A DNA stretch of 64,000 nucleotides from Bacteroidaceae bacterium (GTDB lineage Bacteria > Bacillota_I > Bacilli_A > RFN20 > CAG-826). Where the stretch lies: positions 6,166 to 70,165 of the forward strand of contig CAVFNI010000006.1 in assembly GCA_963624045.1 (NCBI GenBank). The letters run 5' to 3'. Positions 5,808-57,835 of the stretch are shown one piece after another (the stretch's first letter is position 1; every line of letters begins with the position of its first letter). Both the position numbers and the translations under genes were made by a program. The notes beneath the pieces were generated by a model that was not told the DNA's origin, did not search any database, and worked only from the letters and a program-made list of their open reading frames with translations.

Positions 5808-6107
5808 GAAATTGATAAATGAGATGAATATTTGGGAAGAAGGAACCCGTAAAGAAGAAAAAATCCCCCTACGTTTGGTAAGAGGTTTCAGCTTCAAGCT
5901 CCGGAGTTCCATTTTTCTTTCCGGAAGAAAACTCTAACAAGGAAAGGGGACGGAAACAATCATTTTTTATAAACGATTTTCGACCTCAAAAATATTTTCC
6001 AAACCTCTTTCCAAAGGAAAGGGGAGGCAAGATGAAAGATGTAACCAAAAATGAAAGTGCTTTCACCACCAAAGGGGGTGGTTTTCTTTTAAAATTAGGC
6101 AGTCGAA

Positions 6108-6173
6108 GTCGTATATGCCGGTAATATGGTCCAGCAGTCTCTACGCCCTCTCCTCAAAACTGGGCACTACGAC
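6108..6173 (+). ncRNA. Purine (guanine-type) riboswitch-like aptamer upstream of the PbuG-like permease.
   Basis: P1 GUCGUA/UACGAC. The P2 loop UAAUAUGGU is identical to pbuE/xpt L2. J2/3 is GUCUCUAC and J3/1 is ...CACUA. P3 has a non-canonical loop. Total 66 nt. Confidence 0.45.
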
Positions 6174-6188
6174 GAAAATCCCTAGGAG

Positions 6189-6214
6189 CGAAACGGCAGC
6201 TCTTTCGGCTTTTT
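6189..6214 (+). terminator. Terminator of the riboswitch expression platform.
   Basis: CGAAA-cggcagctc-TTTCG GC TTTTTG. Confidence 0.4.
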
Positions 6215-35892: not shown

Positions 35893-35923
35893 CGCAAAAA
35901 ATAAGCGGGTTGGCCCGCTTATT
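35893..35923 (-). terminator. Intrinsic terminator downstream of the lipoprotein gene.
   Basis: Minus strand: AATAAGCGGG-ccaa-CCCGCTTATT followed by TTTTTGCG. Confidence 0.8.
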
Positions 35924-35943: not shown

Positions 35944-38430
35944 TTATGACACTGGATAAACCTGGGTGAAGGTCATTTGGAAGTTATATAGAGGAATATC
36001 CGGATGAATCGTAACGATGAACGAATCTGGGCCGGTATAACCAGTATAGATTGTGGATTTTCCCGAAAGCACTTTCGCTATTTTATTTTCCTTTTGGCGC
36101 TCGGTGCCATCTTGATTGTACATAGCGTGGTAATTTTTATCGGTGATATCTTCACCATCTCTATTCACGATATTAAATTCAAAGAACTTGCCTTCGGGAA
36201 GGGTAATCTCATAGAAACCATATTGGCCGGTGTTTATGCTTGTGGCGCCAGTTCCCTCACTCGGAGAGAAAGTATAAGTCTTTTCGTCAGCGCTCATAGC
36301 GAAAGTTCCGTGCGTAACCATATATCCGCAACCGCCATCGAGTTCCTCATTGCAATAGCCGGTTTTGTAATACCCATCAAGGTGCGTATGAACGCTCGTT
36401 ACCTTACCCACCAAAGCGGCTTTGCCACTAGAAGCGGCCAAGAAGCTGACGAATTCGTCACCTACTTGCACGGGGTAGGCATTGCCGGGATTAAATTCGA
36501 AGGTGACCTTCCTTTCTTCGCCAGTTGGTATCGATGAAACATGTTTATTGTCACTATCTCTAATTTCGATAATTTCGGCATTATTTACTTGCATTCCTTT
36601 GCCGCTAAGATCACTAAAGCTGTTATTACCAGAGGCATAAGTCATTGAAAGATCGGGGACAAAATAAAGGCGGGGCTTCTCGTAATATTTATATTCGTAG
36701 GTCGAAAGGTTCTTTAATGTCACGTCGAATTGCGGAATGGATTTAGCGCTTTCGGCATCTCCCCATATAGATAAACCGGCGCCTCCATAAACGGAATTAA
36801 ACAATTCTTTTATATCCGAAGAATCTGGGGAAATTAAATAAAGCTTGACGAAATCGTATTCGAATCTTCCTGCTCTATCGATGCTATTGCCGTTATTATC
36901 TTCAATTTTCTCCACTTGCGCCGGCTTTACGATGTGCGAGAAATAAACGGTATCGCCGACGGCCACTTGCCCAGCTTGAATGTAACCTGTCGAAATGACT
37001 TCGGTATATGTGCTGTTTATTTTTGCCGTTTGAACGAGGCGGAATGTCTCGTCGTTAAGAACCTCCAGGGTGAGCGTCATGCCATCCCATTCTTCAGGCT
37101 CCTCGTATGTGTAATTACCATCAGAAAGAAGCAAATGTTCAGATGAGAATTCGTGCGTACCGATCTGCCACATTTCTTTGTCGCCTTGTTGGGCGTCGTC
37201 ATACAAATAGACGTCGTCCCCTGGCAAAACACCATCCTCTTCGGTGAAGCGATAGATGAGGTCGTAATGTCTCTCCAAAGCGCTACGGGTGAATTTCCCA
37301 CTCTTAGCGGAAGAAGGGAGAGTCAAGGTCCTCTTGGTGGAAATCGTATATGTGTCCTTATCCAAAACGAGCTTATAATTCGCGGCGTCATCGCCTGATA
37401 AGGTTATGTTTCCTTTAGAAAGGGAGGCGCTCGCAGTTACGTAGGAATAACCATAATCGACATCAACGTTAATGTCGTCTCCATCAACCGCGCCATATTT
37501 AACCAGAACATCAGTCTTTTCGTCTTTGACGTTAGAAATCGTTTTGGTACTGGTGCCATCATAAACTTTATCGAGGTTTAGCCCCGTGCCCAAAACACGT
37601 TGCTCAATCACGAAAGTCACTTGCATTTCGTTGGCTTTAAAATCCTCGCCCTCAGAGATAGCCGCCTTAATTTTGTATGTGCCGACGTTTTTAGGCGCAT
37701 CGGCGGCCTCATACCAAGCGGAATCTCCCTCTTTTTGATAGGTAACGGTAACGGCGCCATTCTGGCAAGAGAAACTATCCGCGTTGATAAAAGCGCTGAT
37801 CTTTCTGCCATCATAAATGCCTTTCAATTGATCTTGGCTTATTAGCAATGTGATCGGCGAATCCTTCTTTTCGAGCATCGGGATGGTTTCGTTTTTCTCA
37901 TAGGAGCAAGTAAGGCAAGTATAATGTTGCGATCCATTCGCCGTGTATGTAGCTGGCGTATCGACAACTGGCTCCGTCGAGAAATTATGCTCGGCATAAG
38001 AATCCTTTTCGTCGGTATGGGCGCAAGTGGCCTTATGCCAATGATGGGTTTCGTTTTGCTCCCAGTTTTCGGTATCGAAGGTATGAACGTGCTCTATCAC
38101 CGGAAGAACTTCCTCCTTCTTATAAGAGCAGGTCAAACAGGTATAGGTCTTAATGCCCGTCTCGGTCTCGGTAGCGGGTTTCGTTTCCGTCCCCTCGTCG
38201 AAATTGTGTTTGGCTTTCTCGGAGACGTCGGTATGACCGTTTGCGAGGCACTTTTTCCAGTGATATTCCTCATCATACGTGTAGGTATCGCTGTAACTAT
38301 GCTTCACCTCCGAAGACGACGGCGTAGAATCGCTAGAGGCAGAGCCACTATCGGATGATTCCCGATGTCCGCATGCGGAAAGCATACCAAGCATGGCAAG
38401 AGAGGACGCCAAAAGCAGTTTTTTGTTCAT
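35944..38430 (-). CDS. Large surface lipoprotein with two Cys/His-rich repeats, YDG/MBG-like repeats and a C-terminal region of about 450 aa of unknown fold.
   Basis: Start at MNKKLLLASSLAMLGMLSACGH, a canonical lipoprotein signal with lipobox LSAC. The repeats read HxWHKxxCxxxHTD...HNF...TYTCLTCSY.K.E and KVYDGTST. 828 aa from this start. Confidence 0.75.
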   Translation of the reverse strand: MNKKLLLASSLAMLGMLSACGHRESSDSGSASSDSTPSSSEVKHSYSDTYTYDEEYHWKKCLANGHTDVSEKAKHNFDEGTETKPATETETGIKTYTCLTCSYKKEEVLPVIEHVHTFDTENWEQNETHHWHKATCAHTDEKDSYAEHNFSTEPVVDTPATYTANGSQHYTCLTCSYEKNETIPMLEKKDSPITLLISQDQLKGIYDGRKISAFINADSFSCQNGAVTVTYQKEGDSAWYEAADAPKNVGTYKIKAAISEGEDFKANEMQVTFVIEQRVLGTGLNLDKVYDGTSTKTISNVKDEKTDVLVKYGAVDGDDINVDVDYGYSYVTASASLSKGNITLSGDDAANYKLVLDKDTYTISTKRTLTLPSSAKSGKFTRSALERHYDLIYRFTEEDGVLPGDDVYLYDDAQQGDKEMWQIGTHEFSSEHLLLSDGNYTYEEPEEWDGMTLTLEVLNDETFRLVQTAKINSTYTEVISTGYIQAGQVAVGDTVYFSHIVKPAQVEKIEDNNGNSIDRAGRFEYDFVKLYLISPDSSDIKELFNSVYGGAGLSIWGDAESAKSIPQFDVTLKNLSTYEYKYYEKPRLYFVPDLSMTYASGNNSFSDLSGKGMQVNNAEIIEIRDSDNKHVSSIPTGEERKVTFEFNPGNAYPVQVGDEFVSFLAASSGKAALVGKVTSVHTHLDGYYKTGYCNEELDGGCGYMVTHGTFAMSADEKTYTFSPSEGTGATSINTGQYGFYEITLPEGKFFEFNIVNRDGEDITDKNYHAMYNQDGTERQKENKIAKVLSGKSTIYTGYTGPDSFIVTIHPDIPLYNFQMTFTQVYPVS

Positions 38431-38475
38431 GGTAATTATCCATTCCTTTCTAGTAATAGAATACAAGAAAGAACT

Positions 38476-38483
38476 CCCCCCCC
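38476..38483. repeat. C8 (G8 on the coding strand) homopolymeric tract in the lipoprotein promoter/5' region.
   Basis: ctCCCCCCCCgc on the plus strand, about 45 nt upstream of the lipoprotein ATG and adjacent to TTGACT. The surrounding 100 bp are extremely AT-rich. Confidence 0.8.
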
Positions 38484-38584
38484 GCAAGAGTCAAATATAA
38501 AAATTTTTATTTTTACAAATTAATATTTTATCTATTTATTATTGAATTATTTTAATAAATGTAATTGTATTTTAATCTTGTCAA

Positions 38585-41124: not shown

Positions 41125-41980
41125 CAACAACCTCCTTAGCGGAATGCACTTCTTTCGTTTGAAACTGGTGACGGAAGAAAGTCTCTTGACGTTTGACGTA
41201 ATGCCTAGTGTCCATGACGATGGCTCGCTTAACCTCATCCAGACCGATGAGCCCATCGCGATAGGGAAAAAATTCTTTGATGCCGATCGCGCTATAAACG
41301 CCCTTGATCGTTTTTACCCCTGCAATCTGCGGCATAACCTCCTTTTCAAGGCCGTCATCAAACATCTTCTCCATCCTTCGTTCAATTCTTTCATACAATT
41401 CTTCGCGATTAGGCGATAACCGATAAAAAGCGGTCGGATAAATCGGGGCGTGCTTTTGTTTGGATAAAAAGGAGGTTTTGCTTTCTCCTAGCGCCAAGCA
41501 GATTTCCAATGACCTTAACACCCGACGGCGGTTCTGGAAAGGGATCTTCTTGGCCTCCAATGGATCTAATTCCTCTAATTTTTGATGCAAGGACAAATCG
41601 TCCATCGTCAAATATGGCGACATATTCACCTTAGAAGTATCGAGAGTCAAATCATAATCGTAAATGGCGCTGCGGATGTATAAACCGCTTCCGCCAACAA
41701 GAATCGGCGTTTTCTTCCTATTTAGGACTTCTTCGATTTTCTTTCTCGCGTCTTTTTGGTAGCGATGTAGGTCATAAGGATCCAAAGAGGAGACAAAGCG
41801 AAAAAGATGATGCGGTACTTTTCTAATCATCGCTTCATCGGGGCACATGGTGGCGATAGGAAAGTCCCGATAGACCTGAAAGGCGTCGGCGTTAATGATT
41901 TCGCCATCAATCTGTGAGGCCACCTCGATTGCCGTCTTACTTTTGCCTGAGGCCGTCGGTCCCATCAAGACCAAAATCAT
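41105..41980 (-). CDS. miaA: tRNA dimethylallyltransferase.
   Basis: P-loop GPTASGKS. 291 aa. Confidence 0.92.
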   Translation of the reverse strand: MILVLMGPTASGKSKTAIEVASQIDGEIINADAFQVYRDFPIATMCPDEAMIRKVPHHLFRFVSSLDPYDLHRYQKDARKKIEEVLNRKKTPILVGGSGLYIRSAIYDYDLTLDTSKVNMSPYLTMDDLSLHQKLEELDPLEAKKIPFQNRRRVLRSLEICLALGESKTSFLSKQKHAPIYPTAFYRLSPNREELYERIERRMEKMFDDGLEKEVMPQIAGVKTIKGVYSAIGIKEFFPYRDGLIGLDEVKRAIVMDTRHYVKRQETFFRHQFQTKEVHSAKEVVDDFSYR

Positions 41981-43713
41981 TTAAGAACCTCAGCAATAGC
42001 TTTTAATTCACTTCCCGCTTCATCTTTAAGCACTTGGTAATTCGCCAAGGCGGGGTGAGAATTGATTTCCTTTTCGAGCGCCAATAACCGCTCCTTAGCC
42101 TCTTGGTGTTTGTCGACATCACCGATTGAAAGAGCCAACTCCTTCTTGGCGGCGGCGTATTTTTCCCCTAATTCCGTAAGGTAAGGATCATTAGAAAGGC
42201 TTTCGCTAAGCTTTTTAAATTGCTTTAGCAAAGGATCAACTCCCATCAAATATGCCACGTCTTTGGCTTTTTCTAGCAAAGGGTCACCTATTAATTCGCC
42301 ATGCAGAGAATATGTCTTCGAGGCGTTTATTTTCACAGGGACAATCGCGCCCTTCAAATATGCTGGCCCATCGAAATGAATCAATTTGCCATTTCGGGCG
42401 TATCCGCTTAGCTTATTGGGGTCTTTTTTGCTTGGTCCCTCAACCAATACGTCGATGGTTTTTCCTAGCATTTCCTCGCTGGATTTAGCCGTTAGGTCAT
42501 CAACGACCGCCTTTAAGCGAAGGAATCTCTCTTTGGTAACTTCCGGATCGACCTGTTTCATTTTGGCGGCCGGAGTCCCTATGCGCGGCGAATAAATAAA
42601 GGTATAAGCGCTAGAATAGCCCACTTCTTTCATCAAACTTAAAGTGTCGGAGAATTCCTCTTCCGTCTCGCCAGGAAAGCCGACGATGATATCCGTAGTC
42701 AAAGCGATATCCGGTATCTTCTTCTTGATGCGGGAGACCAAATCGAGATATTCTTCGCGACTATATCTTCTCCCCATGCGGCGAAGGCAAGATGAGGAAC
42801 CGCTTTGGACGGGGAGATGGAGCCAATGATCGATATTGGGATATTTGGCCATCGCTTCGATCATCTCATCGGTGAATTGGCTGGGATAGGAAGTCAAGAA
42901 CCTTAGGCGTGGCACCCCCAAAGCCGCGACCCTCTCCAACAAGGAAGCAAAGGTTGTGCCATCATGCAAATCAAGCCCATAGCTATTGACGTTTTGTCCT
43001 AATAAGGTGATTTGCTTATATCCCGTTTCGACTAATTCGCGGCATTCTTTCAACACGTCTTCCATTTTGCGGCTTCTTTCCCTGCCGCGCGTATAAGGCA
43101 CGATGCAATAAGTGCAAAATTTATCGCACCCATAGGAGATATTGACATAGGCTTCATAAGAAGATAATCGTAGCGATGGCATCTGTTCAACCACTTCGCT
43201 TGAGAAGGAAGAAGACGAAACCACCGCCCGTTTTTCTTCGATCACTTTGCTTAAGAGCGATGGCAGTTTGTTTATCTCATGGGTTCCGATGATCAAAGAA
43301 ATGAATGGGTAAGTCTTTAGCAAAGATTCGGCCACCCCTTCTTCCCCCATCACGCAGCCAGATAAAACCAACAAAAAGGATGGATTCTTCTCTTTATTGG
43401 CTTTAAATGAGCCGATTTCGCCATAAATCTTCTCTTCGGCGTTTTCGCGCACGGCGCAGGTATTGATGATGGCGATATCCGCCTCTTCAGGTTTATCGGT
43501 ACGAAGGAAGCCCGCTTTCGCAAGATACCCCGCCATCGTCTCCTCGTCCCGATAATTGGCTTGGCAACCGTAGGTGCGGATATAAAATTTCTTCCCTGCG
43601 CCAAAAACACATAAATTCAAAGGGATACGTCCGTCATCGTAAGAACGTTGGACGGGCGGCCTTTGGGCGGCGGTAGTTTTATTTGGTGTTTCCAGAATGA
43701 GCGCCTTTTTCAT
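41977..43713 (-). CDS. miaB: tRNA-2-methylthio-N6-dimethylallyladenosine synthase MiaB with a C-terminal YmcA/YlbF (Com_YlbF, Ric)-like extension.
   Basis: MTTase N domain (YIRTYGCQAN), radical SAM CDKFCTYC, TRAM domain, then an extra helical segment of about 100 aa (...LALEKEINSHPALANYQVLKDEA...) with the YmcA/YlbF pattern. Confidence 0.8.
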   Translation of the reverse strand: MKKALILETPNKTTAAQRPPVQRSYDDGRIPLNLCVFGAGKKFYIRTYGCQANYRDEETMAGYLAKAGFLRTDKPEEADIAIINTCAVRENAEEKIYGEIGSFKANKEKNPSFLLVLSGCVMGEEGVAESLLKTYPFISLIIGTHEINKLPSLLSKVIEEKRAVVSSSSFSSEVVEQMPSLRLSSYEAYVNISYGCDKFCTYCIVPYTRGRERSRKMEDVLKECRELVETGYKQITLLGQNVNSYGLDLHDGTTFASLLERVAALGVPRLRFLTSYPSQFTDEMIEAMAKYPNIDHWLHLPVQSGSSSCLRRMGRRYSREEYLDLVSRIKKKIPDIALTTDIIVGFPGETEEEFSDTLSLMKEVGYSSAYTFIYSPRIGTPAAKMKQVDPEVTKERFLRLKAVVDDLTAKSSEEMLGKTIDVLVEGPSKKDPNKLSGYARNGKLIHFDGPAYLKGAIVPVKINASKTYSLHGELIGDPLLEKAKDVAYLMGVDPLLKQFKKLSESLSNDPYLTELGEKYAAAKKELALSIGDVDKHQEAKERLLALEKEINSHPALANYQVLKDEAGSELKAIAEVLK

Positions 43714-48046: not shown

Positions 48047-48390
48047 GGAGCATCCGGCCCGATAAGCCATGTTCTGTCGAGGGCGAACATTCATCTCAGG
48101 TTTCCCTGGAAGGGTCGTCTTCATTTGGATTTCCCTTCTTCCCCTACCAAATTTGGGTTTCTCGCTTGTGGGGTTTACCGCGTTTCACCTTGTTGTCGCC
48201 AACAAGCTCGTCTCTGTGGCACCTTGGGGAGAATCGTCTACGGGAGACTCCTCTCACGCCGTCACGCGCTCCGGGCGTGCCTAGGCTTATTGATTAACCT
48301 AGCGCAATCACTACATCCGTCGCAGGATGTGCGAGCATGGACTTTCCTCTGGTTTCCCAGCGGTCGCCTGGGCCGGATTAGCCGCTTCGT
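48047..48390 (-). ncRNA. rnpB: RNase P RNA, type B (Bacillus-type).
   Basis: Reverse complement contains AGAGGAAAGUCCAUGCUCGCAC (P4 region, identical to B. subtilis), a P3 hairpin CCCAGgcgaccgCUGGG, ends able to form P1, and the second P4 strand near the 3' end. Lies between the gpsB-like gene and pgsA. Confidence 0.85.
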
Positions 48391-57656: not shown

Positions 57657-57798
57657 TCCTCCTGCTTCAGGAGGTAAAAGAAACGTTTTGGCCTCTCTTA
57701 TCCGGACTTTACCGTTGGCATCGGAATTGCGCCGATTCATGCTTTCGCTTGCGGGCTATACCGCCAGTCGGCGTATCTAACGCCGCCCTGAAGCGAAC
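57657..57798 (-). ncRNA. FMN riboswitch (RFN element) with an RBS-sequestering helix.
   Basis: Minus strand: CGCUUCAGGGCGG.GUUAGAUACGCCGACUGGCGGUAUAGCCCGCAAGCGAAAG ... GCCAACGGUAAAGUCCGGAUAAGAGAGGC. This matches the conserved RFN halves of the B. subtilis ribD leader (GGGGCAGGGUGAAAUUCCCGACCGGCGGUAGUAAAGC / CCGACAGUGAAAGUCUGGAUGGGAGAAGG). It is followed by ACCUCCUG-aag-CAGGAGG, which pairs with the SD. A TATAAT -10 sits just upstream. Confidence 0.8.
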
Positions 57799-57835
57799 AA
57801 ATTATACGCCAATTGCCAACGCAAAAGAAAAGGAA

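Follow-up and report, generated by a model that had tools for sequence, protein, structure and literature searches.

Simple-repeat promoter switches have been documented mostly in pathogens (Neisseria, Haemophilus, Treponema and mycoplasmas), phase variation in gut commensals is known chiefly from invertible promoters (invertons), and, to our knowledge, documented homopolymer promoter switches are scarce in uncultured commensal gut Bacillota. Of the described systems closest to the locus analysed here, Treponema pallidum tp0126 (encoding an OmpW homologue) and Neisseria meningitidis porA carry a poly-G tract between the -35 and -10 elements, for which a spacing of 17 nt is optimal (PMC7864442, citing Giacani 2015 and van der Ende 1995). 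A poly-C tract overlaps the -35 element of N. meningitidis opc, and poly-G tracts lie near the promoter elements of T. pallidum tprL and tprE,G,J (PMC7864442). The surface lipoproteins of mycoplasmas provide a further group, with poly-A in the promoter of Mycoplasma hyorhinis vlp and TA repeats in the promoter spacer of M. mycoides Vmm (PMC10502178).

We analysed a 64-kb stretch of DNA (hereafter, the window) in which a G/C homopolymer precedes the gene of a large lipoprotein. The features of the locus are as follows:

35896-35920, minus strand: intrinsic terminator, AAGCGGGCCAACCCGCTTA followed by T6, at the end of the lipoprotein gene
35944-38430, minus strand: gene of the 828-aa lipoprotein (open reading frame; signal peptide with lipobox LSAC)
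38439-38451, minus strand: leader block AGAAAGGAATGGA (Shine-Dalgarno region), identical in every homologue and unique in the window
38458-38463, minus strand: candidate -10 element TATTCT, conserved across the three genomic contexts and 27 nt from the ATG
38476-38483, minus strand: poly-G tract, G8 (C8 on the plus strand), the proposed slipped-strand repeat in the promoter spacer
38482-38487, minus strand: candidate -35 element TTGCGG, with TTGC invariant in homologues and the final GG shared with the 5' end of the tract
38489-38494, minus strand: TTGACT hexamer, at a position that is not conserved, 25 nt from TATTCT

The window DNA (~45% GC) has long open reading frames under translation table 11 (standard code). 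The best named relatives of its MnmG are from 'Bacilli bacterium' MAGs (63-65% identity), and its RNase P RNA is of class B, which fits a Bacillota genome. The preliminary description had likened the locus to switches of Mollicutes, Neisseria and Haemophilus; the idea of a switch carries over, but the host is an uncultured gut Bacilli member with the standard code rather than a mycoplasma-like organism. Three structured RNAs in the window scored above the Rfam gathering score, namely the RNase P class B RNA (48058-48375, minus strand), an FMN riboswitch (57686-57799, minus strand) and a purine riboswitch (6089-6189, plus strand). On the minus strand the genes run in the order miaB, miaA, a thiF-like gene, formate-tetrahydrofolate ligase, DUF951, the spacer, the lipoprotein, two CNNM/CBS transporters and ABC ATPases. 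The MiaB-like radical-SAM methylthiotransferase reading frame (41977-43713, minus strand) shows weak similarity to Com_YlbF at its C-terminal end (Pfam E = 3e-4, which misses the cut-off) and may represent a fusion.

The lipoprotein is the only lipobox protein in the window. Its N-terminus, MNKKLLLASSLAMLGMLSAC, is a signal peptide with the lipobox LSAC, followed by a Ser-rich linker and by N-terminal repeats that are rich in His and Cys (YDEEYHW, NETHHWH, TCLTCSY) and ~40% identical to many gut Firmicute surface proteins, LPXTG proteins among them. Given the signal peptide, the LSAC motif, the Ser-rich linker and the shared surface-protein modules, the product is predicted to be surface-exposed. 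Pfam gave one sub-threshold match (MBG_3, an MBG domain) and otherwise no assignment for the C-terminal part; sequence comparison with the PDB yielded no match and comparison with NCBIfam nothing meaningful. An AlphaFold model built from a four-sequence alignment was unusable (mean pLDDT 40.5, pTM 0.27). A search of the lipoprotein coding sequence for tandem repeats found none. Because the gene ends in a clean terminator of its own, we regard it as a single-gene transcription unit requiring a dedicated promoter. Downstream of DUF951 no convincing terminator was detected ahead of the lipoprotein gene, and read-through from there could provide tract-independent expression of the lipoprotein.

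The tract occupies 38476-38483 as an uninterrupted C8 on the plus strand (G8 on the coding strand), 45 nt from the lipoprotein ATG at 38430, in agreement with the preliminary description, which had also called the surroundings AT-rich. Indeed, the intergenic spacer (38431-38584), which begins at the stop codon of the DUF951 gene, has a GC content of 17.8% when the tract is left out, and the 101 nt upstream of the tract have 12.9%. The tract is flanked by ATATTTGACTCTTGC and by AGTTCTTTCTTG or AGCCATTTCC. It is the only G/C run of at least seven in the window; runs of six were depleted (5 seen versus ~11 expected), and runs of exactly seven were absent (~2.6 expected). Dinucleotide shuffles contained on average 1.43 G8 runs per 64 kb, with at least one in 61 of 100 shuffles, and a single G8 in 64 kb is therefore no compositional outlier. 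As G8 is not rare by composition, the case for a function rests on position, conservation and length polymorphism and not on run statistics. At eight bases the tract falls in the range in which homopolymers are prone to slippage (about 7-8 or more).

We compared the tract among contigs that encode the exact or a near-exact lipoprotein and among GTDB species representatives. The close comparison comprised seven assemblies in a 4.88-kb alignment, which separate into sub-lineages A and B. Each allele represents one assembly consensus, some of them from low coverage (for example, 4-7x in ENA assembly names), and the window and L001 may derive from one sample. Across strains, tract length was found to differ within both sub-lineages (G8, G9 and GTG6 in A; G8, G9 and G10 in B), distributed as follows:

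Sub-lineage A, window and L001 (SRR13434610): G8
Sub-lineage A, L087 (GCA_963614415.1): G9
Sub-lineage A, L168 (GCA_963643055.1): GTGGGGGG (GTG6)
Sub-lineage B, L002 (SRR19415682): G9
Sub-lineage B, L169 (JGI 3300001525): G10
Sub-lineage B, L170 (SRR19415688): G8

Members of sub-lineage A differ by 20-35 substitutions over 4.88 kb and share the synteny of the window, and the tract is their sole indel site. Members of sub-lineage B are 18-31 substitutions apart over the same length. Divergence within the sub-lineages is 0.4-0.7% over 4.9 kb, and between them ~9%. Apart from the tract, the 170-nt upstream region shows no differences inside each sub-lineage. Across all seven assemblies, the only other length-variable site is the T-run of the terminator at 35896-35920 (T6, T7 or T8), and A/T runs of 6-7 elsewhere in the alignment are constant in length. 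Among these close strains the tract varies far more than its flanks and, as judged from the aligned consensus sequences, is far more mutable than its surroundings. A scan of JGI metagenome contigs for the exact leader motif gave no matches, and a protein-based scan of the same collection returned distant relatives (at most 38% identical) and no further tract alleles.

Homologues of the lipoprotein with 69-70% amino acid identity were found in two other neighbourhoods, where the upstream sequence is unrelated to that of the window. The tract was kept at the same place in some of these homologues and lost in others:

Other neighbourhood (GGDEF upstream), L005/L007: G9
Third neighbourhood, L008: A+G7
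Third neighbourhood, L003/L004, L171 and L172: no tract; ACTAGGG or ATTAGGG in its place

High mutability combined with retention over divergence and relocation is the signature to be expected of a contingency repeat, not of a chance run. The GTG6 allele and the ACTAGGG versions look like 'locked' forms.

Several observations concern the mobility and integrity of this module. The lipoprotein gene, its promoter and its leader together occupy three neighbourhoods (as seen in L003, L005/L007, L008 and L009 versus the window), which are FTHFS-DUF951/CNNM, 784-aa protein/His_Phos_1 and GGDEF/CMD. MAG bins with orthologous contigs are named inconsistently (Hallerella, Sodaliphilus, Holdemanella), which indicates mis-binning or unreliable labels. 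In two ENA assemblies (L173:1750-1865 and L174:1535-1632) the spacer after DUF951 matches lineage B up to ...TATATTTGAC and then continues as unrelated sequence (CGTTAAATGACAAAG...), with the contigs ending ~55 nt further on. This break falls exactly at the TTGAC|T boundary, and suggests either that the lipoprotein gene and its promoter form an insertion/deletion unit or that a strain-variable junction breaks assemblies. In L172 (1541-1560; assembly ERZ15610583) the poly-A that follows the start codon (ATGAAC-A7-TG in L003 and L171) is A6, which shifts the frame of the signal peptide; this may reflect another slippage site, one acting on translation, or else a pseudogene or an assembly error.

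An alignment of all versions of the upstream region revealed an invariant TTGC directly 5' of the tract, a T-rich segment of 11-12 nt after it, a -10-like box and, just before the ATG, the conserved ribosome-binding region AGAAAGGAATGG. The -10-like box is TAT(T/C)CT, except in two tract-less versions in which it reads TATTAA (without the final T) and TATTAT, the latter matching the consensus at five of six positions and thus more closely than TATTCT. Between TTGCNN and the -10-like box, the spacer is exactly 17 nt in three tract-less versions and in the A+G7 version (L008), 18 nt with G8 (the window), 19 nt with G9 and 20 nt with G10. The elements that flank the tract are themselves weak, with TTGCGG matching TTGACA at three of six positions and TATTCT matching its consensus at four of six, and a generic consensus scan called neither; it is from their conservation that we infer a promoter. 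The allele with the best predicted spacing, G7, was not encountered in the assemblies of lineages A and B. The only other promoter located in the window, that of the FMN riboswitch, has a perfect TATAAT and no clear -35, so that promoters of this organism may not rely on a -35 element. The regions upstream of riboswitches and RNase P, inspected for the promoter consensus of the organism, displayed no clear -35 pattern.

The preliminary description had taken TTGACT as the -35 element, with the tract immediately 3' of it and tract length setting the distance to the -10. Tract length would indeed change a -35/-10 spacing, but the probable partner in this arrangement is TTGC(GG) and not TTGACT, from which the tract is separated by 5 nt (CTTGC). 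TTGACT lies too far from TATTCT, the hexamer at the 17-nt position is CTTTCT, and there is no -10-like hexamer 16-19 nt from TTGACT. Homologues also differ in how far TTGACT lies from the tract (5 nt in the window and lineage B, 16 nt in L005), and its counterpart in L003/L008 reads GTCAAT, ~23-25 nt from the tract position. With a variable distance to the tract and 25 nt to the -10, TTGACT is out of position to pair with the conserved -10 box, and we rejected it as the -35. Compared with L003/L005, the window lineage has apparently lost ~14-18 nt between TTGACTC(T) and TTGC.

On the basis of these data we propose, with a probability of roughly 60%, that G8 is a hypermutable repeat within a sigma-A-type promoter of the porA/tp0126 type that tunes or switches transcription of the lipoprotein. 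The promoter would consist of the -35 element TTGCGG (38487-38482), a spacer made up of the remaining tract bases and 12 further nt, and the -10 element TATTCT (38463-38458). Transcription is predicted to start ~20 nt upstream of the ATG, right before the invariant ribosome-binding block. As the DNA is replicated, slipped-strand mispairing would add or remove one G, and the predicted spacer would shift with the tract (17 nt for G7, 18 for G8, 19 for G9 and 20 for G10), G7 restoring the 17-nt spacing in lineages A and B. Such a change would alter promoter strength heritably and reversibly, so that the surface lipoprotein would be displayed in a graded or ON/OFF manner within the population. Direct observations are the tract and where it lies, its differing length between strains, its retention in diverged homologues and the conserved flanking hexamers, which are 17 nt apart where the tract is absent; the promoter function of the hexamers, the transcription start, the slippage mechanism and the effect on expression are what we infer from them. 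The length differences between strains and the retention in homologues of 69-70% identity thus speak for the lipoprotein switch of the preliminary description, minus its TTGACT detail. A switch is further favoured by the terminator and lipobox product of the gene itself, and by the lack of an Rfam family, an RNA structure or flanking inverted repeats that would offer another role for the spacer.

Several mechanisms that would assign the tract to another class were considered. An Rfam search of the spacer returned no credible family (best E = 4.5) and its predicted fold did not differ significantly from those of shuffled sequences (z = -0.88), which speaks against a known cis-regulatory RNA or attenuator; the sole terminator-like match across the tract depends on G-U pairs, and a terminator or attenuator at this place was rejected. 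As for an inverton, the only inverted repeats found were AT-rich and 10-11 nt long, none of them flanked the promoter, and orthologous loci contained no orientation variants. A frameshift switch inside the reading frame does not fit a tract that lies 45 nt upstream of the ATG and whose G9 and G10 alleles leave the gene intact. The related possibility that translation begins upstream, at a TTG at 38487, such that the tract is part of an 847-aa reading frame and length changes shift its frame, is exceedingly improbable. That frame does run through the tract in phase with the ATG, and gene callers extended some homologues upstream (P0086, P0090). However, the TTG is not preceded by a ribosome-binding site, both the ATG with its MNKK signal peptide and the invariant Shine-Dalgarno block lie downstream of the tract, and in the G9 and G10 alleles the upstream frame is disrupted but the 828/829-aa gene is whole. 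Moreover, a lipoprotein signal peptide is necessarily N-terminal. Sequencing or assembly artefacts in a homopolymer whose true length is invariant are also a very improbable source of the differences. Homopolymers are error-prone, several contigs have low coverage (4-7x) and consensus sequences are all that was compared, and an assembly error is possible for any single allele; it is unlikely for all four length/sequence states, which come from independent projects (NCBI MAGs, Logan runs and a JGI metagenome), or for the substitution-type variants, given that the G-to-T change in L168 and the A+G7 of L008 are not slippage-type errors. In addition, A/T runs of 6-7 within the 4.9-kb comparison kept a constant length.

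If the polymorphism is real, the tract may still be a neutral mutational hotspot that slips without affecting how the lipoprotein is expressed. In a spacer with ~18% GC one would expect a neutral G8-10 to be lost over time, whereas this tract persists over ~30% protein divergence and relocation at a fixed 12 nt from the -10 box, and we consider neutrality improbable, even if length polymorphism by itself shows mutability and not function, the T-run of the terminator varies as well, and the gene is apparently intact both where the tract is interrupted (L168) and where it has been lost (L003). Somewhat less improbable, but still unlikely, is a hypermutable tract that affects expression by a route other than sigma-A -35/-10 spacing. 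Here the tract might influence how a regulator binds or is phased (opc-like, possibly through TTGACT) or how the open complex forms (tprL-like); alternatively, transcription might begin further upstream in the AT-rich region (for example, from TTAATT-18-TATATT), which would place the tract in the 5' UTR. Known poly-G/C switches act in several ways (PMC7864442), the -35 candidate is weak, a TATATT box is located just upstream of TTGACT and TTGACTC recurs beside poly-G both in the window clade and in a pair of clostridial genes (L041/L044, see below). Set against this, the upstream sequences of the three contexts are unrelated, so that no upstream promoter is conserved; TTGC-N-TATYCT is conserved, with a spacing of exactly 17 nt where the tract is missing; and the spacer carries no RNA structure signal. 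We therefore retain the promoter-spacer switch as the preferred reading.

Poly-G in the promoter is not a general property of this protein family. In a survey of 157 genes with the same N-terminal module (~1.2 Mb of fetched loci, 160 nt upstream, G/C runs of at least six), the only genes outside the window clade with such a run were L041 and L044. These lie on separate contigs of a single MAG (JAZUAE01) of an unrelated, spore-forming 'Clostridia bacterium' and encode paralogous lipoproteins. The two products are only distantly related to the window lipoprotein, and their own signal peptides and N-terminal His/Cys modules are conserved while their C-termini differ. Both share the promoter tgtgttttagTTGACTC-Gn-(T)ATATGATA(C/T)(A/C)CT, located as follows:

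L041:3879-3910 and L044:707-735: promoter TTGACTC-Gn-(T)ATATGATAYMCT

In L041 the promoter reads TTGACT-C-G8-TATATGA-TACACT, with a 16-nt spacer and a TG motif before the -10, and in L044 the tract is G6 and the spacer 13 nt. The pair looks like a small poly-G-switched lipoprotein family, and suggests that the same design, here with a canonical -35, is a recurring strategy. In the window clade, in L005 and in L041/L044, a TTGACTC(T) motif precedes the tract at variable distance.

More tentatively, the promoter-tract-leader module (TTGC-Gn-12 nt-TATYCT-Shine-Dalgarno block) might be a portable contingency cassette that moves among genomic sites of gut Bacilli, with homopolymer switching recurrent in gut Bacillota; we hold this to be possible but doubtful. 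Such a module would travel with the His/Cys-module lipoprotein in an uncultured clade of gut Bacilli, and homopolymer phase variation would then be a recurrent strategy of uncultured commensal gut Bacillota that can be detected in metagenomes. Should the tract of the window work as proposed, an abundant uncultured lineage of gut Bacilli would vary a large surface lipoprotein stochastically through one-base slippage, with host antibody, phage and niche factors as candidate selective pressures. The locus lends itself to examination in existing reads and metatranscriptomes, and would also provide a simple marker of strain and of switch state. The mechanism itself is familiar, and no new one is revealed.

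Among described systems, tp0126 and porA resemble the locus in having a G tract of ~8-11 nt in the promoter of a surface protein, with graded or ON/OFF transcription (PMC7864442). They differ in that mapped transcription starts, reporter assays and within-strain heterogeneity are available for them, whereas the arrangement here is deduced from sequence; their hosts are spirochaete and proteobacterial pathogens, in contrast to an uncultured commensal of the gut Bacilli; and here the tract shares its 5' bases with the candidate -35 hexamer, an arrangement partly opc-like and unlike tp0126/porA. The opc and tprL promoters likewise contain a G/C homopolymer in non-transcribed promoter DNA, on whose length transcription depends (PMC7864442), but in those promoters the homopolymer is not a mere determinant of -35/-10 spacing. 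At this locus a spacing mechanism is favoured over the opc/tprL type by the conserved hexamers and by the 17 nt between them in tract-less versions, with an opc-like contribution possible alongside.

The vlp and Vmm genes also encode surface lipoproteins of Bacillota-derived bacteria, and their transcription is switched by indels in promoter repeats (PMC10502178). In these systems promoter, leader and signal peptide form a conserved module, as they do here in three contexts, and in JAZUAE01 the module heads two paralogues with different C-termini. The repeat there is poly-A or TA and here poly-G, and the present host uses the standard code at ~45% GC; the gene lacks in-gene tandem repeats for size variation, and one such gene lies in the 64-kb window. 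A Vlp/Vsp-like multigene family would have several paralogues per genome; here the module occupies three contexts, which may or may not belong to one genome. With the invertons of gut Bacteroidota and Bacillota the locus would share phase-variable expression of surface structures in gut commensals, but flanking inverted repeats are missing here and the variation is a 1-nt change in length instead of an inversion. With the promoter-spacer class, it shares a repeat of adequate length, hypermutability between close strains and, as its sequence suggests, a surface product. The location would correspond as well if TTGC(NN) and TATYCT, which are weak and uncalled by the scan but 17 nt apart in tract-less homologues, do serve as -35 and -10. 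The locus is thus probably a further case of this well-known class of switch.
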